Numbered from the stretch's first letter, positions 1 to 10,712 are shown. The stretch: 64,000 nt of DNA from Gemmatimonadaceae bacterium (GCA_051305945.1 JBPPMH010000100.1:782-64781), one strand, 5' to 3'. Numbers and translations are program-made. The notes: generated by a model from the sequence alone, not told the origin.

Positions 1-500
1 TCAAGCCGTCCGTCATCTTCGGGGCGCAGGACGCTTTCGTGAACGTGCTTGCCCGGATGATCCGGCTCAGCCCACTCGTCTTTCCCGTCCCTGGCGGCGG
101 CCGCGCGCGCTTTCAGCCGATTGCCGTTCGGGACGTCGCCGGCGCTGTCGGCGTCGCCCTCGATCGCGACGATACGATCGGCAGCGAGTACCCACTCGGC
201 GGACCCGCCGAGCTCTCGCTGCGGGAGATGACGGAGCGGATTCTGGTGGCGATGCGCACGCAGCGCATGCTGCTGTCCGTGCCGGTCGCGGTGCTGCGCC
301 CGCTCGTCGCGCTCATGCAGCGCGTCGTCCCGAAACCGCCGGTGACGACGGGGCTGCTCGACCTGCTCTCGATAGACAACACGGTGCCGGAAAACGAGAT
401 CAGGCGGACGTTCGGGATCACTCCAGTGCCGTTCGCGCCGGAGGAGATCGAGTACGTCAGGCGGGTTACGCTGAAAAATGCGATCGAGTCGATGTTTTGA
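1..500 (+). CDS. C-terminal part of an NAD(P)-binding SDR-type protein (NDUFA9/NmrA-like); the 5' end lies outside the window
   Basis: The frame is open from nt 3 (KPSVIFGAQDAF...) to the stop at 498-500. ORF 39..500 is its in-window tail. The family call rests on overall sequence pattern only. Confidence 0.45.
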   Translation, partial: KPSVIFGAQDAFVNVLARMIRLSPLVFPVPGGGRARFQPIAVRDVAGAVGVALDRDDTIGSEYPLGGPAELSLREMTERILVAMRTQRMLLSVPVAVLRPLVALMQRVVPKPPVTTGLLDLLSIDNTVPENEIRRTFGITPVPFAPEEIEYVRRVTLKNAIESMF

Positions 501-509
501 CTGCCACAG

Positions 510-1484
510 TTAAATCTCCCAATTCGACAGCACCACTCCGCTCTTGGGAAGCACCTCACCGTACCCTTCCACCGTCATTCGAAGGTCCGTCCACCGCACC
601 TTCGCCCCCTGCGCTACCAGAATCCGGTACGCCCCCGGGTACGCTCCCTGAACCCTGACCGACATCGTCCGCGTCCCGATCTTCCGCGCGTATGCGGCCA
701 ATTCCACGACGATCCTGGCAAACGCGTCGTCGTCGCGCGCGACCAGCTTGAGCACCCGCATCTCCTCCCGCTCGCGGCCCTCGACCAGCGGCACCGAATG
801 GCACAGCGCGAACGCCCGCAGCTCCGACCCGGCATAGCTGAGCAGCGTGTCGCCGAGTCCCAGCTCGTGAGTCAGCCGCAGCTCGCGGGTGAAATCGTAG
901 CCCGGGCATAGCGCGCCGAGCAGATCCGCGCACTGCGAGATCGCCGCGTCGCGCTGGTCGTCGCTCATCCGGCCGAGCTCCACTGCCTTGGTCGCGCCGA
1001 GCGCGGCGGGCAGCGTGAGCGTGATCGTGAGCGGACCGGGCAGAAAATCGAGCGACGAGTAAAAGCCGATATTGTCCATCGTGCGCGGCATCGTCTCGAG
1101 GCCGATCACGCGCGCGCCCCGCGCCCTGAGCCACTCCACGCCGTGCGTCACGATCAGCTTCCCCGCGCCGCGTCCCTGATACGCCTGCGCCACGGCGAGT
1201 GGACCCATCCATCCTTCCGTCCCTGATGCGTGCACCAGATTGAACGCCGCGATCCCGCCGTCCAGATCGCGCCAGAGGACGGCGCCGCGCGCGGCGTCCG
1301 CGACGGCGTACTGCCACATCTGCGGGTTGAGCCCGGGCACACGGACGCTCACCATCCCGTCCTTCCGGTAGCGCTCGGTGAACACTTCGCTGAACAGCCG
1401 GTTCAGCGCGGGAATGTCGTCGTCCACGATCTGGAAGGGGCCTTCCAGCGCTCGATCGTTCCGCCAACCCCTCGCTGCGGACAT
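510..1484 (-). CDS. GNAT family N-acetyltransferase (two-domain)
   Basis: The acetyl-CoA motif region is ...AQAYQGRGAGKLIVTHGVEWLRARG.... I chose the internal ATG at 1484 (MSAARGW...) because it overlaps the sbcC stop as TGATG. The ORF-track start at 1550 would run into sbcC. Confidence 0.7.
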   Translation of the reverse strand: MSAARGWRNDRALEGPFQIVDDDIPALNRLFSEVFTERYRKDGMVSVRVPGLNPQMWQYAVADAARGAVLWRDLDGGIAAFNLVHASGTEGWMGPLAVAQAYQGRGAGKLIVTHGVEWLRARGARVIGLETMPRTMDNIGFYSSLDFLPGPLTITLTLPAALGATKAVELGRMSDDQRDAAISQCADLLGALCPGYDFTRELRLTHELGLGDTLLSYAGSELRAFALCHSVPLVEGREREEMRVLKLVARDDDAFARIVVELAAYARKIGTRTMSVRVQGAYPGAYRILVAQGAKVRWTDLRMTVEGYGEVLPKSGVVLSNWEI

Positions 1485-3949
1485 CAGCTCGCGGCGGCGA
1501 CCGGTTCCAGCACCGGAATCGCGGCGAGCGCGGTGGCGAGATCGTCGCACGGCGCGCTCTCCTCCACGCGCGAGGCGCCGCTACCCTCGTCGTACCGCAC
1601 CGAGATGACGCGGTCGAGCCCTTCGCGCACCGACTCGATGTGCGTGATCAGGATGACCTGCTCGAACCTGTCGTGCAGTCGCCGAAGCAGGTTTATCACG
1701 TTGTGCCGCCTGGCCTCGTCGAGCGAGCCGAAGATCTCGTCCAGGATCAGCAGCGAAAACGGCTGCCCAGCGCGCTCGGCGATCATCTGCGAGATCGCGA
1801 GCCGCAGCACGAGATGCGCGACGTCCTCTTCTCCGCCGGAGATCACCGGCTTCGGGATCCCGTCGTCCAGCACCGTGAGGTCGTAGTCGTTGGTCAGCTC
1901 CAGCTCGGAATAACGCGAATCCGTGAGCTCGGACAGGAATCCACTTGCCAGCTCCGACAGCTCCGGCCGGAGCTGCGCGTTCAGGTCGCTGCGCAGGTCG
2001 GAGTAGGCGCGGTCGAGCTCGTCGTGGATCCGGCGCGCGCGCTTGAGCGCCGATAGTTTCTCCTCGCGCTTGGCCAGCTCGGCCGCCGCCTCGCGCGCGG
2101 CGTCGGCCGCGGCGTCCGCGCTGCGGAGCTCGCCTTCCGCCGTGATTCGCTCCAGCTCCGCTTTCCGCGCGGCCTCGGTGACGCGCTCGTGCTCCGACTT
2201 CGTCGAGAGGTACTCGTCCTCGGAGAACGCGATCGTCGCATGCGCTTCCCGCAGCTCCTGCGCGCGCGTGCGATGCGCCACGAGCAGCGTCGCGACCTCG
2301 TCGTACTCCGCGCGTATCTGCGGCTCGCGTTCGGCCAGCGCGGCGAGCCGCTCACCCTTCGCAGCCACCGGCGTCAGCTCCTCGATCTGCGCGCGCACCC
2401 GCGCGTGCTCCGTGGCGTCGAACCCGCCCGGCATCGCCGCGATCTCCTGCACGAGCTGCGCCTGCCGCTGCTCCTTTTGAGTCAGCTCCCGCGCGACGCC
2501 CGTCATCTCCTGCACCGCGCTTTGCACCTTCGCGAGCTGGCGCTCGAGGCCCGCGACGGTCTGCACGGCCGCCCGCCGCGCCTCGTCGAGCCCCTTGATG
2601 TCCTCCGGCATCTGGTCCAGCTCTTCCATCCGCTTTCGGAAATACTTGCCGTCGGACGTCAGCGCTTCCAGTTGCTCGGTGAGGTGCTCGACGACCTTGC
2701 CGAAATTCTCGCCGAGCGCGCGGCTGCACGTCGGGCACGCGCCGTCCGGGCCGAGGTCCGCGAGAAGTCGCAGCTGCTCCTTTACTTCCCCATGCTGGCG
2801 GAGCAGGGCCTGCCGCTTGGTCTGCGCTTCCTGCTTGTCCCGCACCCACTCGGTGCGGCGCGCCTCCAGCTTCCCCTGAATCTCCTCGAGCGCCGCCCGC
2901 TGCTTCTCCAGCTCCAGCGTGACGGTTTCTTCCTCCGCCGGCGCGCCCGCGAGGTTCGTCTTCTTCGCGATCAGTCGCTCGATCTCGACGGCAAGCTCAC
3001 GCGACTGCTCGGCGAGCGTCTGCCTCCTCCCCTCCTCCCGATACAGCGAATCCAGCCTCTGCAGCTCGGCGGTGAGCGCGGCGAGCGGCGCGGTCCGCAC
3101 GCGCAGGTCGTCGAGCTCCGCCCCGGCGACCACGATCTCGTTGAGGTCGGCGCCGATCCGCTCGCCCCGCGCCACGAGCGCGCGCACCTCCGATTCGGCG
3201 ACCTGGATCTCGGCCGCGAACTTCTGCAGCGATTCGCGCGCCTCCTGCGCGGCGGCCCAGCGCGGCGCGATTTGCTGCAACGCCGTGTCGCATTCCGTGT
3301 GCACCCGCCGCTTCTCCGTCGCCAGCCGCGCGCCGTCGGCGGCGCGCTTGCTCGCCTCGGCCAGCGTGCGCGCGATCACGTCGGGATCCGGCATTCCCGC
3401 GCGCAGCCCGGACATCTCGGCGAGGATTGTCTTTCGCCGCTCCCGCACCAGCTCCTGCGCGGTCCGCAGCTTCTCGTAGCCGAGCACGCGAGAGAGAAAA
3501 TGCGCGCGCTCCGTCGGCTTCATCGCGGCCATCACGCTGAGCTGCTTCTGGTCGGTGAAGTATGTGTTGAAGAACTCGACGCGCGTCATCCCCAGCCGCC
3601 GCTGGATAAACTCGTTCACACCGGTCTTAGTGGTCGCAACCGGAGAGTCGTCGTCGTTGACGTATACCTCCGCGCGCGACAGCTCGCGGCTCACGCGGTA
3701 GCGCTGACCGGACAGTTCGAAGTCGAGCACGACCCTGACCGGCGCGCGCTCGCCCGCGCGCTGGAAGCGGATCGTCTCCAGCTTGTCGCGCTGCGCGCCC
3801 GTGCCGTACAGACACCACGCGATCGCCTCGAGGATCGTCGTCTTCCCCGCGCCGTTGGGTCCGATGACGCCCGTGATCCCGGTGCCGAACTCGATGCTGG
3901 TGTCGGCGTGCTGCCGGAAGTTCGTGAGCTGGAGCCGGTTGATTCTCAT
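1484..3949 (-). CDS. sbcC: SbcC/Rad50-type SMC-like ATPase (double-strand-break repair)
   Basis: N-terminal Walker A is GPNGAGKTT. A long coiled coil carries a central CxxC zinc-hook (GACPTCSRAL, about nt 2725-2740). The C-terminus has ISGGEED..., Walker B LLILDEIFGSLD and ITH. Confidence 0.9.
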   Translation of the reverse strand: MRINRLQLTNFRQHADTSIEFGTGITGVIGPNGAGKTTILEAIAWCLYGTGAQRDKLETIRFQRAGERAPVRVVLDFELSGQRYRVSRELSRAEVYVNDDDSPVATTKTGVNEFIQRRLGMTRVEFFNTYFTDQKQLSVMAAMKPTERAHFLSRVLGYEKLRTAQELVRERRKTILAEMSGLRAGMPDPDVIARTLAEASKRAADGARLATEKRRVHTECDTALQQIAPRWAAAQEARESLQKFAAEIQVAESEVRALVARGERIGADLNEIVVAGAELDDLRVRTAPLAALTAELQRLDSLYREEGRRQTLAEQSRELAVEIERLIAKKTNLAGAPAEEETVTLELEKQRAALEEIQGKLEARRTEWVRDKQEAQTKRQALLRQHGEVKEQLRLLADLGPDGACPTCSRALGENFGKVVEHLTEQLEALTSDGKYFRKRMEELDQMPEDIKGLDEARRAAVQTVAGLERQLAKVQSAVQEMTGVARELTQKEQRQAQLVQEIAAMPGGFDATEHARVRAQIEELTPVAAKGERLAALAEREPQIRAEYDEVATLLVAHRTRAQELREAHATIAFSEDEYLSTKSEHERVTEAARKAELERITAEGELRSADAAADAAREAAAELAKREEKLSALKRARRIHDELDRAYSDLRSDLNAQLRPELSELASGFLSELTDSRYSELELTNDYDLTVLDDGIPKPVISGGEEDVAHLVLRLAISQMIAERAGQPFSLLILDEIFGSLDEARRHNVINLLRRLHDRFEQVILITHIESVREGLDRVISVRYDEGSGASRVEESAPCDDLATALAAIPVLEPVAAAS

Positions 3950-5175
3950 ACGGGCCCGTCGGCGAAGACCGGCTGCTCGACTGCTTCGGCCTGCGTGAGG
4001 TAGTCGAGTCCCGCGGCGACCAACTCCTCGCGATCTATCTCGGAGTCTATCGGCCGGCTGCGCAGCCCGTCACGCACGAGCTCGGCGAGCGACGCGCGCC
4101 GGCCGGGCGCGGCGTGGCCGTGCACTCTGATGACCTCGGGCCGGCGCGGATCGAGATGGAAGTGCAGCGCGCGGCGCTTGTACTCGCGCAGCGCCTTGTG
4201 GTCCAGCTCGCGCGCCACGTGCCGCGCGACGTTCTTCGCCACCAGCCGCACGATGGCTTCGTCAATCGGGACCGGCGAGCCCTCCACCCGCTCGCTGATC
4301 GCCTGATCCACCTCGGCGGCGGTCATCCCGCGCGCGTCGAGCTCGGGCAGATCGATCACCGCGCGCGTCTCGATCGGATGAAAGGTCTGCTTCCCGCTGT
4401 CGAGGTCCCACTCGATGAAGCCCTTGCCGGGCTTCCCGATCCTTTCGCGCGGCGCCGCCGCGCGCCAGGTCTTTCCGTCGAGCGCGGCTTCCTCGGCGAC
4501 CTCGCCCCAGATGGTCGTGCTCGTGTACTCCAGCGAGCCGGAGTAAAACGCGTTCGACGCGATCTCGCGCCAGACGTGATAGTGCCCGAGCGCCACGTAG
4601 TCCCAGTTCTGCGCGCCGAGCTGTTCCCTGCTGATCTCCATCGTGCCGCGCTCCGCCATGCCCACGTGCGGCGGGAGCAGCCCCTGAATCTCGCCATGCA
4701 TCAAGAGGACGTTGTACCGCTTGTTGCCCTGCGGCCGCAACACCGGCGGCTCCGCCCCGCCGAGGTCGGGGACCGCGAGGATGGACAGGTCCCGGTCGCT
4801 GATCGGGATATGCTCGTAGCCGCCGTCCACCACATAAATGTTCAGCGGCTTGAACAGCTTGAGCAGGCACCCCGTCTCGGTGGTGCGCGGCGTGTCGTGG
4901 TTGCCCGCAACCATGACGACGATCGCGTCCGGCAGCATCTGCATCAGCCGCGAGAGCTGCTTGAACGCGTGGATGATCGCCGGGTTGGTGGGCCGCACGT
5001 TGTGGAACACGTCGCCGGCGAACAGCACGATGTCGGGCTGCAGCTCGATGGTCTTGTCGATGGCCTTCCGGAACGCGAGCGCGACGTCGTGCTCACGTTG
5101 GTTGATTCCCATCGGGGTGAAGCGCTGGTACTGCCGGAAGCCAAGATGGAGATCCGACAGATGAACTAGTCTCAT
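3946..5175 (-). CDS. sbcD: SbcD/Mre11-type nuclease
   Basis: Calcineurin-like phosphoesterase motifs are present: LSDLHLG, AGDVFHN, VAGNHDTP, LLMHG and ALGHYHV. The gene has an ATGA overlap with sbcC. Confidence 0.9.
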   Translation of the reverse strand: MRLVHLSDLHLGFRQYQRFTPMGINQREHDVALAFRKAIDKTIELQPDIVLFAGDVFHNVRPTNPAIIHAFKQLSRLMQMLPDAIVVMVAGNHDTPRTTETGCLLKLFKPLNIYVVDGGYEHIPISDRDLSILAVPDLGGAEPPVLRPQGNKRYNVLLMHGEIQGLLPPHVGMAERGTMEISREQLGAQNWDYVALGHYHVWREIASNAFYSGSLEYTSTTIWGEVAEEAALDGKTWRAAAPRERIGKPGKGFIEWDLDSGKQTFHPIETRAVIDLPELDARGMTAAEVDQAISERVEGSPVPIDEAIVRLVAKNVARHVARELDHKALREYKRRALHFHLDPRRPEVIRVHGHAAPGRRASLAELVRDGLRSRPIDSEIDREELVAAGLDYLTQAEAVEQPVFADGPV

Positions 5176-6014
5176 GAACCTCGCATTGCGCGGAGTCGCT
5201 GCGTGACTTTCATCTGGAGCTGCGCCGACGGCCCTGAGGCCTTACCCGAAGTAATCACCGAATGCACGTTCAGTACGAGATACGTATCCGTGATCCAGCC
5301 CAGCCTGCGATCGAGCTGCATTCGTCCCGACAGCGTACCGGTGCTTCGTTGCGTACCGCCGCTGCGATCGGACTCACCGATTCTGCTGAGAGTTCCGTTC
5401 AGCGTGATGTATGCAATATCGCCGTTTTGGCCCAGCGAATCGAGCCTGAAATTCGCTTGCACGCGAGCCATGCCCGCGGGCCCATTGCCGATCGGAAGAT
5501 CCAGGGTCCGCCTCCATGTGCCGCCCACGCTGACCGGACGGTCGGGAAGCATCGGAGCCGTCGGCGGAAAGAAAGGCGGAGTTTCGCCGTCGTGCTCTCC
5601 GGTATCGAGCACCTGCATGCCGCCGTCATGCCCCACTATCATGGTCACGCGCGCCCCTTCCAGAGCGCTGCGGGGAGTGCTGACCGGAGATCCACCGATC
5701 GGCGTGAGAGCCATCGAGTCCGTCACGGCCTGCACCAGACTCCCGGACGCGAGCCGCCGCAGCGGGATCGCGCGCGTCCGCACGTGGATGGATCCCGTCA
5801 TGGACTTGGGCGCGCCCGGGGCATCCGGCGACGTACCGGTGACCTCGATTTGCTGGTCGAGCTGCATGTGGATCGTATCACCCACCTGCGGACGGATCTC
5901 GAGCCGGACGCGCTGGGCGTGCGCGGGCGCCGCGCACAGCAACACCGCCAGCATCGCCACCGCGCCGCCGAGCAAGCCCCGGATGCGGGACGCTCTCACT
6001 CGCTCAGAACCCAT
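5172..6014 (-). CDS. Exported hypothetical protein (signal peptide)
   Basis: The N-terminus RIRGLLGGAVAMLAVLLCAAPAHAQ looks like a Sec signal. The gene overlaps the herA stop by 11 nt and the sbcD start as ATGA. I recognise no family. Confidence 0.6.
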   Translation of the reverse strand: MGSERVRASRIRGLLGGAVAMLAVLLCAAPAHAQRVRLEIRPQVGDTIHMQLDQQIEVTGTSPDAPGAPKSMTGSIHVRTRAIPLRRLASGSLVQAVTDSMALTPIGGSPVSTPRSALEGARVTMIVGHDGGMQVLDTGEHDGETPPFFPPTAPMLPDRPVSVGGTWRRTLDLPIGNGPAGMARVQANFRLDSLGQNGDIAYITLNGTLSRIGESDRSGGTQRSTGTLSGRMQLDRRLGWITDTYLVLNVHSVITSGKASGPSAQLQMKVTQRLRAMRGS

Positions 6015-7959
6015 ACGGGTCGTCGCCCGCCGGAAGCTTGATGGGCGCGGGCCGCTGCCGCGGCGTCTCCGCGCGCACCGGCGCCAGCGGCCGCAAGCGC
6101 GACGCGAAGAACGCCTTCACATCCCGCGGCCGCGCCAGCACCGTCGCGTTGCGCGCGCGGATCACCTCGTCGTCCTCCCGCAGCGCGATGTGCTGCTTGA
6201 CCCACTCCAGCGAGATCGTCGGATCCAGCACACGAAGCGAACGCGTCACCGCGGCGTCGAGCGCAACTTCCTCGGCCTGCGGGAACAGCTCGGCGCCGTC
6301 GCGCCCCTGCATCACCGCCGGGCGCGGGAACCTGACGAAGACGGGCTGCGTGAAATGCGGATGCCGCACCATCAGCTGACCCTTCTCCAGCGTGGAGAGC
6401 TTGGTCTTGACCGCCTGGCTCAACACCGCGTACCCGGGAGCAGCGAGCTCGTCCGCGTCCATCCGCCCGAACAGCGACGTGCCGGAATTGCCGACCACGC
6501 GCCGGTGCACCTGCGAGCGGAACTGCTGCGCGCCGAACAAAACGAGACCGAGATACCGGCCCCTCTCGGCGATGTCGAGCAGCATTTTTCTGACATAAGT
6601 CTCCGGCCCCTCCGTCGCGGCGTACTTGTTCAGCTCGTCGACGAAAACCACGACATGGTCAACGCCCAGGTTTCGCCGCTCGAGGTGCTCGCGGAGCTTG
6701 GAAACGATGCGCGTGAAGATCAGGTCCTGCGCGTCCTCCTCGAGGAGCGCCACGTCAACTACGTACACTCCGCGGTCCTCGAAGCTCCCGAACGGCAGGT
6801 CGCTCACGGTGCCCTCGGCCGTGACCAGCCCGGCGCAGCGCAGGGCGATGTTGGTCAGCCGGTTGCGAACTTTCCTGATGGTCGCCACGTGGTGCGTCCG
6901 GTAGCTCTCGGAGTTGCTCTCCTCCAGCATCGAGAGGACATCGCGGAACCACTCGTCCAGCTCCGCGAACGAGTCGACGTTGTAGGTGCGCTTCGCCAGA
7001 CGCTCGTCACGGAACTCACGGCCGGCGATCTTGTCGCGGATGAAGTCGATCACCGCGTCGGCTTTCGCGTCCACGTCGTCCTTGTTGAGCAGCACCTCGG
7101 CGTACTGCAACACCTCGCGGAGCCCCCACGTGAGCGGGTGCACGTTGTGCAGCAGCGCTTCGTTAGAGCGGAGAGTGTTGAGGTTGTAGCCGCCGGCGTC
7201 GTACGCGGCGTAGTACCGCACGTTCGCGAACGGCTTGGCCGGAACGCCCATCTTCTCGTACATGATCTCGTCGGCCGGCTCGAGCTTGCCCGGCTGGTCG
7301 AGATAGCAGAGATCGGGACCTTTGACGTTGAACGCGACCGCCGCGATCGTGCCCTTCTTCTCCGGGAAGTGCGTGAACAGCGACGACAGCAGCCACTCCA
7401 CCGCGCTCGTCTTCGTCGCGAGCCCCGACACGCCGGAGATGTTGAGGTGCGCGGCCTCGGGCCCCACGAGAAAGTCCGCGTCGAGATAGATCGGCGCGTC
7501 CGTGCCGCCCGCGTGATAGATCCCGATCGGGATTCCGGTGCGCGCGCCTTCCTTGAGGTAGCCGTCCATCCGCAGCGCGACGGCGACGTCGTGCTCGTCG
7601 GCGAGGAACACCGAGCCCATCGGCACCGGCTGGAGCGGCTCCTCGGGAATCATCCGCAGCACCGCCGCGGTGTACAGCCGGATCTCCGTGCGCTCGGTGG
7701 GCGCGAAGCCCGCGCTCGAGGGCTCGCCGTCGTGGCCGAGCACGTCGTGCATCGGCGAGACGAGATCGCTGTAGCTGAATCCCTCTATCACCGCGCCGTA
7801 GATCTTCGGCAGCTGTCCGTCCACGGGATGCTCGCCGTCCACGCGCACGATCGTCCCGATCCCGACGGGCGACGTGACCGCGGTCCAAAAGTGGAACTGG
7901 TGCGGCGTGTTCGGCCGCCGCTCGGTGGCGACGACTCTTCCGAGCGCCTGCTCGCTCAC
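6004..7959 (-). CDS. herA: HerA-like (DUF87/FtsK-HerA superfamily) ATPase
   Basis: It has an atypical P-loop NISGVSGLATKTSAVEWLL and a Walker B-like VVFVDELNKYA. I chose the GTG at 7959, which overlaps the nurA TGA as GTGA (plus strand tcac at 7956-7959). The 708-aa ORF-track version is over-extended. Confidence 0.75.
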   Translation of the reverse strand: MSEQALGRVVATERRPNTPHQFHFWTAVTSPVGIGTIVRVDGEHPVDGQLPKIYGAVIEGFSYSDLVSPMHDVLGHDGEPSSAGFAPTERTEIRLYTAAVLRMIPEEPLQPVPMGSVFLADEHDVAVALRMDGYLKEGARTGIPIGIYHAGGTDAPIYLDADFLVGPEAAHLNISGVSGLATKTSAVEWLLSSLFTHFPEKKGTIAAVAFNVKGPDLCYLDQPGKLEPADEIMYEKMGVPAKPFANVRYYAAYDAGGYNLNTLRSNEALLHNVHPLTWGLREVLQYAEVLLNKDDVDAKADAVIDFIRDKIAGREFRDERLAKRTYNVDSFAELDEWFRDVLSMLEESNSESYRTHHVATIRKVRNRLTNIALRCAGLVTAEGTVSDLPFGSFEDRGVYVVDVALLEEDAQDLIFTRIVSKLREHLERRNLGVDHVVVFVDELNKYAATEGPETYVRKMLLDIAERGRYLGLVLFGAQQFRSQVHRRVVGNSGTSLFGRMDADELAAPGYAVLSQAVKTKLSTLEKGQLMVRHPHFTQPVFVRFPRPAVMQGRDGAELFPQAEEVALDAAVTRSLRVLDPTISLEWVKQHIALREDDEVIRARNATVLARPRDVKAFFASRLRPLAPVRAETPRQRPAPIKLPAGDDPYGF

Positions 7960-8936
7960 GCGATCGCCCGGAGAAACTCTTCGGAGTTGCGCACGCCGTA
8001 GCTCATCTTGTCCCAGCGCGCGTCGGGGAGCGCGAGCGGCGCCGCTTCCGCCAGCACCCAGCGGGAAATCCGGTCCACGTCGGCATTGGAGCTCACCGTG
8101 TCGCACGCTTCGATGCGCACCAGTCCCCACGTCGCGTCGTGTCCCTTGTTGTCGCGCAGCCGCAGGTACCAGCTCGACACCGGCGCGCGGCCGCCGGACT
8201 GTATCCGGAACGGCGGCGTTCTCTCACCCTGCGCGAGCCCGAGCACGACGTCGAGATCGGTGCCCTCCGCGTGAATCGTGTTGTGTGTCTTCACTACACC
8301 TACGGCGACGCCCGACCCGGCGACGCGCGCGCTCGACGCGATTCCGCCGTCTATGCAGATCGGCTCCTCGCGCGCCGCGCACCACGCTTCCGCCAGTATC
8401 ACCTCGACGCGCTCGCGATCCCTTCGGACCGACTTGATCGCGCTCTCGAGCAGCGCGGCCGGATGGCGCGAAGGCAGCTCGCCCATGCTCGCATCGGTCG
8501 TGTCCACCACAGTGAACGCGGGATCGCTCTCGCCGGCCAGCGCAGGTGCGTACGCGAACGGCAGATACAGCCGCCGCTCGACCCGCGGCGCGCACCCCGT
8601 CCATGTCACGAGCCTCCGGTCAATCCGCTCGCGAACTGCCGCCGCGACGATGCCCAACACGATGGGGACGCCGCCGTGGCGCGCGACGATGCGCACGCTC
8701 TGCGTCCCATCCAGGAACGCCGCGAATCGCGCCTCCGGCTCGCCGCCCACTTCGACAGCCCGCATCGCGCCGCCGCCGAGCATCGGCGCCGCGGAGAGCT
8801 GCGGCGGGTCCATCCGCGGAAACGCGGGATCGGACAGCTGGCCGGCCTCGACCGCGTCCACCCCCGGCAAGAGACGTTGGATGTACCTGAGGGCCGCGCG
8901 GCTGGCCGCGTCCGGACCCGGCTGCAAGAGAGCCAT
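7956..8936 (-). CDS. nurA: NurA-like nuclease (putative)
   Basis: At 326 aa it has acidic motifs AAFLDGTQSV and ICIDGGI in NurA-like positions, and it is translationally coupled to the herA-like gene. The call rests on motif pattern plus context. Confidence 0.5.
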   Translation of the reverse strand: MALLQPGPDAASRAALRYIQRLLPGVDAVEAGQLSDPAFPRMDPPQLSAAPMLGGGAMRAVEVGGEPEARFAAFLDGTQSVRIVARHGGVPIVLGIVAAAVRERIDRRLVTWTGCAPRVERRLYLPFAYAPALAGESDPAFTVVDTTDASMGELPSRHPAALLESAIKSVRRDRERVEVILAEAWCAAREEPICIDGGIASSARVAGSGVAVGVVKTHNTIHAEGTDLDVVLGLAQGERTPPFRIQSGGRAPVSSWYLRLRDNKGHDATWGLVRIEACDTVSSNADVDRISRWVLAEAAPLALPDARWDKMSYGVRNSEEFLRAIA

Positions 8937-8950
8937 CTAACGCCCCGCCT

Positions 8951-9229
8951 TCACTCGATGCCGATATCCCAGGCCTGTTCCAGGTCCTTCTTCGAGTAAG
9001 CGCGAAACGCGGTCAGCGTCTGGGTGTGGACGAGACCGGGAACCGTCGGAAAATTCTCGGTCACGACGCGCGCAACGCTCTCGTAATCCGTGACTTCGAT
9101 CATCGCGACGAGATCCCATTCGCCGGACACGGAATACACCTGCGAGACGCCCTCTATTCCCGCCAGGGCAGTGGCGCATTGCGGAATGAGTCTGGGCTCG
9201 GCTTTGACGAGAACGATCGCGGTTATCAT
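8951..9229 (-). CDS. Stand-alone Lrp/AsnC ligand-binding (RAM) domain protein with no HTH
   Basis: The 92-aa protein starts directly with the RAM beta-strand ITAIVLVKAEP... and continues ...VYSVSGEWDLVAMIEV.... The ATG is at 9229. It ends 14 nt upstream of nurA on the same strand. Confidence 0.7.
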   Translation of the reverse strand: MITAIVLVKAEPRLIPQCATALAGIEGVSQVYSVSGEWDLVAMIEVTDYESVARVVTENFPTVPGLVHTQTLTAFRAYSKKDLEQAWDIGIE

Positions 9230-9305
9230 GCGGACGCGGGGTGGTAGATTCCTGATATTACCGGGCGGCGACGGGCGACGCTATCAATGTACGACAACCA
9301 AGCAA

Positions 9306-10712
9306 ATGACCGATAAGAAAACCGAAGCCGAAGCGGCGGCCACCAGCTCGCGCTCGCAGAACGTCGTCCGTGTCCTACCGCGGGACTGGAGCTCGCTCGC
9401 CGAGGTCATCACCCCGTCCATGGAGCGGATAGACGGCACGGTCGCGGCGACACAGTTCCTGGTCGTCACGCCGGATCCGTCCAGCACCTTCGCGGTCGTG
9501 CGAGGTGCCTTCGAGCGGTTTGGAACCGTGGGCATCGATCTTTTCCCGGCTACCGCCGAGCACCGAGCGGCGCGGCTCATGGCCGGCGTGCCGGTACCGG
9601 CGGTGGCGGGGCCACCCGAGGTCCTCCGCGCGCTGATGGCCCGCTCCGTCCTCCGGGTGGACGGCGTCAAATCCGTGCTGTTCACGTGGATCGAGGACGT
9701 CATCGAGGCCGGCGGCGACCAACTCGCCGCGCTCGAGGCGGTTCTCGCCGAGGTTCCGGAAACCGCGTCCCGAACGCTGGTGGTGCGGGAGGTGACCCCC
9801 GCCGTCCAGAGCTTCATTGACCGGTACATGTTCCGCGCGCGGCGCGCGACGGCCGCGGTCGTTACGCCGGAAGGCGAGGAGCCTCAGCCGATGGCGATGG
9901 AGTACGTCACTACGCCCTCGGCGGCACGGCCGGCGTCGCTCTGGCGGCTGCTCGACGAGCTCGACCCGCCCTCGGCGGTGGTGATCGCCCGGCACCCCGA
10001 ATCGCAAGCCGACGCGAAGCGGACGCTGGCGCAGCTCGGCTATCGCCGCGGCGACGATCCTGTGACCGTGAGCACCGCGCCGGCGGGCGAGAACGTCCAC
10101 ACGATCGTCTTCTACGATCCGCCGCTGGCGCAGGCCGACGTCGAGGCCGCGCGCGCGGTGACCGCGGCGCGCGTGATCGCGTTCGTCGAGGCGGGCGACC
10201 TGACCGGGCTCAAGCAGCTCACCGGCGGACTAGCGAAGCCGCTCGCGGTGGGCGACGCCGTGCGGCAGGCGCGCCGCAAGGACGACACTCTGCGCGCGGA
10301 GCTCAGGCAGGTGCTCGATACGGGTGTCGCGTTCCGGGAGATGACGGCGCTCGAGCCGCTGCTGGAGCAGTACGACGCGGTCGAGGTGGCTGCGGCGCTG
10401 CTGCGGCTGCTCGAGCGGGAGCGCGAGCACGCGCTGACCGTCCCCGTCGCGCCGAAGCCGCCCAAGCCCGCGCGGGAGGACAGACCACCGCGCAGAGAGG
10501 AGAGACCGCCGCGCGGACGGGACGACAGACCCCCCCGCTCACGCGACGACAGGCCACCACGCGGCCGGGACGACAGGCCACCGCGCGGTCGGGATGATCG
10601 TCCGCCACGCAGTGGGCCGCCACGGGATTCCGGACGCTACGCCGGTCGCGACTCGGGCCGCGCGGGCCCGCCCCGCGGGCGCGGAGGAGATCGCGGAGGC
10701 AGCCGCAGGTGA
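9306..10712 (+). CDS. DEAD-box-helicase-like protein lacking ATPase motifs, with an Arg/Pro/Asp repeat tail
   Basis: I chose the ATG at 9306 (MTDKKTE...). The segment order resembles a DEAD-box core (LVVTPDPS.., [11 protein letters not shown].., TLVVREVTP.., AVVIARHPE.., TIVFYDPP.., RVIAFVE..). No GK[ST], DEAD or SAT motif is present. The tail is (DRPPRGRD)n. Confidence 0.5.
10475..10612 (+). repeat. About six tandem 24-nt coding repeats (E/D-D-R-P-P-R-x-R)
   Basis: gaggacagaccaccgcgcaga / gaggagagaccgccgcgcggacgg / gacgacagacccccccgctcacgc / gacgacaggccaccacgcggccgg / gacgacaggccaccgcgcggtcgg / gatgatcgtccgccacgc. Confidence 0.9.

Follow-up and report, generated by a model that had tools for sequence, protein, structure and literature searches.

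A 64,000-nucleotide (nt) stretch of DNA from a Gemmatimonadaceae bacterium (GCA_051305945.1), referred to here as the window, carries an apparent operon in which genes for bacterial-type NurA and HerA proteins are joined to sbcD, sbcC and a gene for a tandem-GNAT acetyltransferase. The arrangement is preserved among related Gemmatimonadota, and its four-gene core recurs on plasmids. By analogy with characterized homologs, the operon probably co-expresses a two-stage DNA-end-processing machine with a role in recombinational repair. The genes form part of seven consecutive open reading frames (ORFs) on the minus strand, running from position 9229 down to 510 in the order RAM-domain protein, nurA, herA, exported protein, sbcD, sbcC and GNAT.

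The coordinates and order of the seven ORFs were confirmed, and every junction given for them in an earlier note on this DNA was present in the sequence. The RAM gene and nurA are separated by a 14-nt gap, as read from the sequence, and start and stop codons overlap at the other five of the six junctions. The GTG start of herA overlaps the nurA stop codon by 4 nt (GTGA), herA overlaps the exported-protein gene by 11 nt, ATGA overlaps join the exported-protein gene to sbcD and sbcD to sbcC, and sbcC and the GNAT gene share 1 nt in TGATG. Third-position G+C content was 0.86-0.91 in nurA, herA, sbcD, sbcC and the GNAT gene, and lower in the exported-protein gene (0.75) and the RAM gene (0.74).

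Profile libraries gave nothing for the NurA candidate and only weak matches for HerA, so both identities were drawn from sequence and fold comparison with the Protein Data Bank (PDB). The nurA product (7956-8936, minus strand; 326 amino acids, aa) had no match in Pfam (including NurA, PF09376; E ≤ 0.01), NCBIfam or PADLOC. Compared with Deinococcus radiodurans NurA (DrNurA), the single sequence scored E = 0.09, and a profile of 28 homologs scored E = 0.002 (7F6D_H). With an AlphaFold2 model of the protein (predicted local distance difference test score, pLDDT, 80.6), the top three Foldseek matches were all NurA structures: 7F6D_G from D. radiodurans (4.7e-11), 1ZUP, which is T. maritima TM1739 (1.7e-9), and 3TAI, P. 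furiosus NurA (8e-3). Template modelling (TM) scores were modest for 7F6D_G and 1ZUP, at 0.46-0.57, and Argonaute PIWI domains trailed far after the NurA structures in the ranking. Residues D76, E183, D196 and H218 were invariant across the 28 homologs. In the model, D76 is found on strand 1, E183 on a long helix, D196 on strand 4 and H218 just past the strand at 211-216. These are the elements on which an RNase H-type active site would be expected, and the four residues are candidate catalytic residues. As modelled, the 326-aa protein has the NurA fold, with its RNase H-like core, and belongs to the bacterial (Deinococcus) type of the nuclease. Adjacency of nurA and herA was kept in all clades sampled.

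In the herA product (6004-7959, minus strand; 651 aa), residues 4-316 and 398-556 were matched by phmmer to D. radiodurans HerA (DrHerA, 7F6D_B), with E = 5.5e-45. Its Walker A motif, GVSGLATKTS at 176, has an unusual form, NISG-x-SG-x-ATKTS, that is common to the window protein and DrHerA. The catalytic acid is part of NVKGPD (211), VDELNK (440) forms Walker B, and an RGR motif is found at 466. The functionally important DrHerA residues K175/T176, D220 and D487/E488 (PMC9960219) have counterparts in K183/T184, D216 and D441/E442 of the window HerA, and the Walker A, catalytic acid and Walker B residues were invariant in 30 diverse homologs. On this similarity the 651-aa protein is a Deinococcus-type bacterial HerA, a predicted translocase/ATPase that, by analogy, would form a hexameric ring with DNA-dependent activity. 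General HerA models performed poorly. Pfam, including DUF87, gave no match at E ≤ 0.01; the archaeal HerA model NF040937 scored 7.9e-4 (17.9 bits, cutoff 800); the PADLOC matches were weak (mad8, 5.7e-9; HerA model, 4.4e-4); and the DUF87 protein 8YHO in the PDB scored E = 0.13.

The NurA and HerA identities proposed in the earlier note therefore stand, on the DrHerA match for HerA and the DrNurA fold match for NurA. The check it had suggested, with the Pfam NurA and DUF87 profiles, is misleading, however, as neither protein is matched and reliance on it would wrongly discard two correct identities. The same note had spoken of an archaeal-style arrangement fused into one bacterial operon. This description fails, both proteins being of Deinococcus type and the archaeal HerA model falling far under its cutoff. 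Wholesale transfer of an archaeal operon was likewise rejected, since HerA and NurA are bacterial-type.

Beyond the region aligned to DrHerA, the window protein has a C-terminal extension of ~95 aa (residues 557-651; window 6004-6288). The extension was present in 25 of 25 members of the Gemmatimonadota clade that were sampled, with a conserved DDPY end, and is a candidate docking tail.

The remaining two proteins of the core were identified with greater ease. SbcD (3946-5175, minus strand; 409 aa), an Mre11-type nuclease, matched Pfam Metallophos (1.8e-11) and carries all five phosphoesterase motifs: DLH at 8, GDVF at 54, GNHD at 91, MHG at 159 and GHYH at 197. SbcC (1484-3949, minus strand; 821 aa), a Rad50-type SMC-like ATPase with a zinc hook, matched Pfam SMC_N (3.4e-23; 82.7 bits against a cutoff of 40), AAA_23 (2.2e-20) and SbcC_Walker_B (3e-7). 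Its motifs comprise Walker A GPNGAGKT at 30, the zinc hook CPTC at 405, the signature SGGE at 704, Walker B LDE at 736/743 and an H-loop THI at 769. Judged by these motifs, the catalytic sites of SbcD and SbcC are all intact, in agreement with the identities given in the earlier note. Both proteins scored best against archaeal-type models and structures. For SbcD, NCBIfam Mre11_Sulfo gave 2e-20 (73.4 bits, under the cutoff of 500) and TIGR00619 (sbcd) gave 1.4e-18 (67.6 bits, under 77.65); the best PDB match was M. jannaschii Mre11 (3AUZ, 6.9e-15). For SbcC, the best NCBIfam model was archaeal Rad50, PRK03918 (6.9e-64; 216 bits, under 700), TIGR00618 (sbcc) gave 3e-26 (91.7 bits, under 478.5), and the best PDB match was M. 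jannaschii Rad50 (3AUX, 1.4e-35). Scores so far under the equivalog cutoffs indicate that SbcD and SbcC are divergent members of their families, and the window SbcC is, by its length and similarity, a short, Rad50-like, lineage-specific form.

Conservation of the locus was examined in one genome per GTDB species, giving 592 relatives, of which the best 80 were inspected; all were Gemmatimonadota. A further 74 contigs encoding HerA of this clade came from metagenomes, for a total of 154 loci with HerA at least 45% identical. The closest HerA among the best 80 of 592 was 96% identical and came from a Gemmatimonadaceae metagenome-assembled genome. Wherever the contig allowed, nurA-herA-...-sbcD-sbcC-GNAT occurred on one strand in all of the best 80 of 592. 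Among loci with more than 5.5 kb of sequence downstream of herA, sbcD and sbcC followed on the same strand in 86 of 87, and the cluster was kept over HerA identities from 47% to 96%. The four-gene arrangement is thus beyond chance. Most of the best 80 also shared upstream housekeeping neighbours, namely dephospho-CoA kinase (CoaE), thymidine kinase and a 540-aa ORF. The best explanation is that the operon is a vertically inherited chromosomal unit of Gemmatimonadales and not a variable island. Two loci appeared to depart from the pattern. No sbcD-sbcC pair was present within 7.7 kb downstream of herA in L158 (GC 0.39), where no nurA was detected either, nor within 5.0 kb in L170; these could reflect loss of sbcD-sbcC or a larger insertion. 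Low-GC members of the clade were L102, L122 and L158.

The GNAT gene (510-1484, minus strand; 324 aa, ATG start) belongs to the conserved unit. Its product matched Pfam Acetyltransf_1 (1.4e-10), and Foldseek matches of the AlphaFold2 model (pLDDT 90.6) were tandem-GNAT proteins: 3DDD (8.8e-14), 3TT2, VipF, MAB_4324, MshD and Eis. In 84 of 86 related loci the gene came next after sbcC in the same orientation, a median of 47 nt away. This conserved fifth gene is the one element for which the described clusters, archaeal or bacterial, offer no precedent.

The exported-protein and RAM genes showed no such constancy. The former (5172-6014, minus strand) encodes a predicted 280-aa exported protein with an N-terminal signal-peptide-like segment, resembling Pfam DUF6263 (E = 1e-5; 25.7 bits, just under the 26.7-bit cutoff). 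Of 130 related loci, 71 had a homolog at this position, flanked by herA and sbcD; herA directly abutted sbcD (gap <200 nt) in 32 of the 130, and insertions of 1.7-6.4 kb separated the two in another 8. The gene was absent from the deepest-branching members of the clade and from the plasmid clusters described below, and so is a later, lineage-specific insertion. Its variable presence, differing codon composition and signal peptide make the exported protein unlikely as a working part of any machine. Even so, the gene for this predicted secreted protein is kept inside a probable DNA-repair operon, overlapped on both sides. The RAM protein (8951-9229, minus strand; 92 aa) is a stand-alone Lrp/AsnC ligand-binding domain without a helix-turn-helix (Pfam AsnC_trans_reg, 2.6e-13). 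In 76 related loci it was encoded upstream, in the same orientation; 33 of these had it within 150 nt of nurA and 37 at a distance of over 1 kb. It was undetected in 34 related loci with more than 3 kb of upstream sequence. A role as operon regulator was not supported, as adjacency to nurA was not conserved. Both genes are variable, lineage-specific passengers, the RAM gene being merely a frequent neighbour. Given that the GNAT gene was kept and these two varied, the selected unit is nurA-herA-sbcD-sbcC-GNAT. The three inserted genes counted in the earlier note reduce to one, since only the exported-protein gene is inside the cluster, RAM is often kilobases away or absent, and the GNAT gene is a conserved member.

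As the best genome loci were all from Gemmatimonadota, evidence across phyla came from plasmids, metagenome contigs and encoding contigs. A tblastn search of PLSDB with the window HerA gave six plasmid records. On a Candidatus Chlorohelix allophototropha plasmid (Chloroflexota), consecutive genes are annotated as hypothetical, 'ATP-binding protein', SbcD and SbcC/SMC ATPase, and the layout is the same on the plasmids of Sphaerospermopsis NIES-73 and Aulosira NIES-50 (both Cyanobacteriota). A linear plasmid of Streptomyces sp. BB1-1-1 (Actinomycetota) has the order herA-sbcD-sbcC-hypothetical, as does an unannotated Nonomuraea record (Actinomycetota). The genes called hypothetical encode NurA homologs, which the window family profile recognized with E = 2.7e-15 to 4.4e-7. 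In Streptomyces and Nonomuraea the order is therefore herA-sbcD-sbcC-nurA, and the linkage survives a change of gene order. SbcCD on the plasmids is of the canonical long bacterial type, with TIGR00619 above cutoff and SbcC of 1006-1117 aa.

Some plasmid clusters have defence-type neighbours. The Chlorohelix cluster adjoins TIR, Swt1-HEPN and ImmA/IrrE genes, and the Streptomyces cluster (L093) has a divergent ImmA/IrrE gene and adjoins TIGR02680, TIGR02678 and DUF2397 genes (Wadjet-like). Chlorohelix (L090:4838-14152) and Aulosira (L092:4645-13957) have in common a module of sigma-70 factor, hypothetical, ImmA/IrrE, nurA, herA, sbcD and sbcC genes, whose upstream proteins are 29-37% identical between the plasmids.

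Other relatives lacked sbcCD. Six distant metagenomic HerA relatives were encoded by a nurA-herA pair or by herA alone, and sbcCD was absent from 19 IMG/VR predicted viral contigs (L175-L193) carrying nurA-herA relatives. Two-gene loci L085 and L088 adjoin DruA-domain (PF14236) genes; L081 and L086 are near integrases, a restriction enzyme and AbiGi. These observations suggest that the separate, sbcCD-less nurA-herA clade is a mobile-element or conflict-related two-gene form. In a HerA tree, a quick neighbour-joining distance tree of 157 residues of the C-terminal ATPase region and so indicative only, three clades were distinguished. One held D. radiodurans HerA and the plasmid copies, with all sampled non-Deinococcus members linked to sbcCD; another was the Gemmatimonadota type, linked to sbcCD; and the third was the two-gene form without it. 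Linkage in two HerA clades, with two types of SbcCD, argues for functional coupling.

How such a machine would work can be proposed from archaeal and D. radiodurans biochemistry. SbcCD would recognize DNA ends, hairpins and protein-blocked ends in an ATP-driven manner, and open or clean them. HerA, as a hexameric double-stranded DNA translocase, would then feed duplex DNA to the NurA dimer, an RNase H-fold nuclease, which would degrade the 5′ strand during translocation and leave a 3′ tail for RecA. The overlapping genes would couple translation and probably set stoichiometry. The division of labour, a contact between SbcCD and HerA-NurA, and the repair role itself are all carried over from those homologs and should be read as such. 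Support for the proposal comes from conservation of the cluster, the translational overlaps, and the linkage in two HerA clades and two SbcCD lineages. The housekeeping neighbourhood and the presence throughout sampled Gemmatimonadales point to a core cellular function rather than a mobile defence island.

Several observations weigh against this proposal. Deletion of nurA-herA in D. radiodurans or T. thermophilus left damage resistance unchanged or improved it (PMC9960219, PMC4663267), and what NurA-HerA does in bacterial cells is not settled. The plasmid copies near TIR, HEPN and Wadjet-like genes, together with the two-gene relatives on viral contigs, make a role in conflict systems conceivable across the wider family. 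Transcription of the locus as one unit is also less than certain. A consensus scan of positions 1-10000 found no sigma-70-type promoter, and terminator-like sites in the same interval were no commoner than in shuffled controls; for these reasons we infer, rather than demonstrate, co-transcription from the gene overlaps. The divergent intergenic region at 9230-9283, the sole non-coding gap upstream of the RAM gene, is the presumed promoter region of the operon.

One alternative, which we regard as unlikely, is that the cluster is a nuclease/ATPase system in which SbcCD and HerA-NurA jointly degrade unprotected foreign DNA ends, whether of phage, plasmid or incoming linear DNA, and chromosome repair is not their primary task. 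It would account for the Chlorohelix and Streptomyces neighbourhoods, for the DruA-domain, integrase, restriction-enzyme and AbiGi genes around two-gene relatives and their presence on IMG/VR contigs, and for the lack of DNA-damage sensitization on nurA-herA deletion in Deinococcus. PADLOC also gave SMC-type scores for SbcC (mad3, 5.7e-39; LmuB, 6e-36) and the mad8 score for HerA. The SbcC and HerA matches, however, are generic to the ATPase head, those of SbcD were weak (PDC-S60, 2.3e-5; PDC-S10, 1.3e-4), NurA, GNAT, RAM and the exported protein had none, and the operon matched no complete known defence system. A conserved housekeeping setting, with the operon in all of the best 80 of 592, is moreover unlike that of patchy defence islands, and the operon has no self/non-self component such as a methyltransferase.

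It is also unlikely that SbcCD and HerA-NurA are mere syntenic neighbours acting in independent pathways, their linkage reflecting shared regulation or history. In its favour, the nurA-herA pairs of D. radiodurans and T. thermophilus, and those throughout the two-gene clade, work without sbcCD beside them, and insertions between herA and sbcD are tolerated in eight loci. Against it are the recurrence of the linkage in a second HerA clade and with a second SbcCD lineage, its persistence through the altered gene order in Streptomyces and Nonomuraea, the overlapping stop and start codons that join the genes, and the physical binding of Mre11 by archaeal HerA reported in the literature. We consider it very improbable that the chief task of HerA-NurA here lies in transferring, taking up or segregating DNA, and that SbcCD trims the ends so produced. 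A DNA-pumping role for HerA was proposed by Iyer et al. 2004, as that work is cited in PMC4663267, and Thermus HerA relatives are reported to take part in DNA donation (PMC5365140); the conserved neighbourhood, however, holds no transfer, competence or division genes, and the nuclease residues of NurA are conserved.

End processing for repair thus remains the preferred interpretation. A bolder extension, which we hold to be improbable, is that the Gemmatimonadota version is a five-component, acetylation-controlled 'resectosome' in which the HerA tail docks SbcCD and the GNAT switches resection, or else a chromosomal anti-foreign-DNA system. In the former case the GNAT would acetylate a component of the machine or a DNA-end-binding protein, and so turn resection on or off. 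Bacteria would then possess, if this is true, an equivalent of the Mre11-Rad50 resection machinery of archaea and eukaryotes that is governed by acetylation.

The operon is flanked by two plus-strand ORFs without Pfam domains. One, upstream and divergent, spans 9090-10712 (~470-540 aa); the other, downstream and convergent, spans 39-500 (153 aa). Both kept their place beside the operon in many genomes of Gemmatimonadaceae. The 64-kb window (1-64000) yielded neither tRNA genes nor any match to an Rfam family at the gathering threshold.

Relatives of these proteins are numerous in protein collections (>1,800 NurA-like and >1,300 HerA-like). HerA and NurA families of this type are nevertheless invisible to Pfam and are publicly named 'ATP-binding protein' and 'hypothetical protein', an annotation gap. 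It is because of such generic labels that the clusters go unrecognized in public genomes.

Compared with known systems, the window operon has in common with anti-phage Sir2-HerA and DUF4297-HerA the pairing of a HerA-family hexameric ATPase with an effector enzyme. Its predicted effector, however, is NurA with SbcCD, and its match to the PADLOC HerA model was weak. The plasmid clusters of Sphaerospermopsis, Aulosira, Chlorohelix and Streptomyces are nearer in layout, with the four genes on one strand and short or overlapping junctions. They differ in having HerA only 24-32% identical to that of the window, long SbcCD, neighbours of ImmA/IrrE, sigma-70 or defence type, and no GNAT.

The closest solved structure for both NurA and HerA is that of D. 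radiodurans NurA-HerA (7F6D, 7WRW, 7WRX; PMC9960219), a complex which digests the 5′ tail in a translocation-dependent manner. The deviant Walker A, the Walker B and the nurA-herA order are the same in the two bacteria, and the aligned C-terminal core of HerA is ~40% identical, the window protein having the additional tail. The D. radiodurans pair is not beside sbcCD, unlike that of the window. As the earlier note had stated, herA-nurA there is an unlinked two-gene unit, and the literature describes the same for Thermus thermophilus. The connection of SbcCD to HerA-NurA was explicitly left open by the authors of the Deinococcus work.

Such a four-gene linkage has been described in bacteria before, at least once. 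Blesa et al. 2017 (PMC5448004) placed the genes for SbcD and SbcC homologs downstream of hepA (herA) in Oceanithermus profundus, in a nurA-hepA(herA)-sbcD-sbcC cluster that they read as an archaeal-like double-strand break repair architecture. The window operon is a further, well-conserved example. As in the window, the O. profundus HerA is of bacterial type and SbcD and SbcC follow immediately downstream. O. profundus belongs to a different phylum, Deinococcota, however, and its publication, on which the comparison was made, reports no GNAT, exported-protein or RAM genes. Its HerA would belong to the Deinococcus/Thermus clade and not the Gemmatimonadota clade, judging from 66% identity to Thermus HepA and from the tree. 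The traits specific to the window lineage are the short Rad50-like SbcC, the HerA C-terminal extension, the tandem-GNAT partner and the inserted exported-protein gene. Our literature search, which did not cover Iyer et al. 2004, found no paper on a NurA-HerA-SbcCD system in Gemmatimonadota.

The earlier interpretation is thus partly supported. Its protein identities hold. The archaeal-style fusion and the three inserted genes do not, and nor does the supposed rarity of the linkage in bacteria, which has been known in O. profundus since 2017 and is found throughout sampled Gemmatimonadales and on plasmids of three other phyla.

The same four families in one operon also characterize thermophilic archaea, in the herA-mre11-rad50-nurA operon (Constantinesco et al. 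2004; Hopkins and Paull 2008), where Mre11 is a binding partner of HerA and resection involves all four proteins working together (PMC2288612, PMC3326311). It is from this likeness that the same division of labour may be expected here. The window operon differs in that its HerA and NurA are of the bacterial type, unrecognized by Pfam and archaeal NCBIfam models at their thresholds (bacterial and archaeal HerA/NurA are <20% identical; PMC9960219), that its host is a mesophilic soil bacterium, and that it contains two further genes, the conserved one for GNAT and the inserted one for the exported protein. The order-wide linkage of nurA-herA with sbcDC, together with its independent recurrence on plasmids, provides comparative evidence that these proteins act jointly in bacteria, as they do in archaea.

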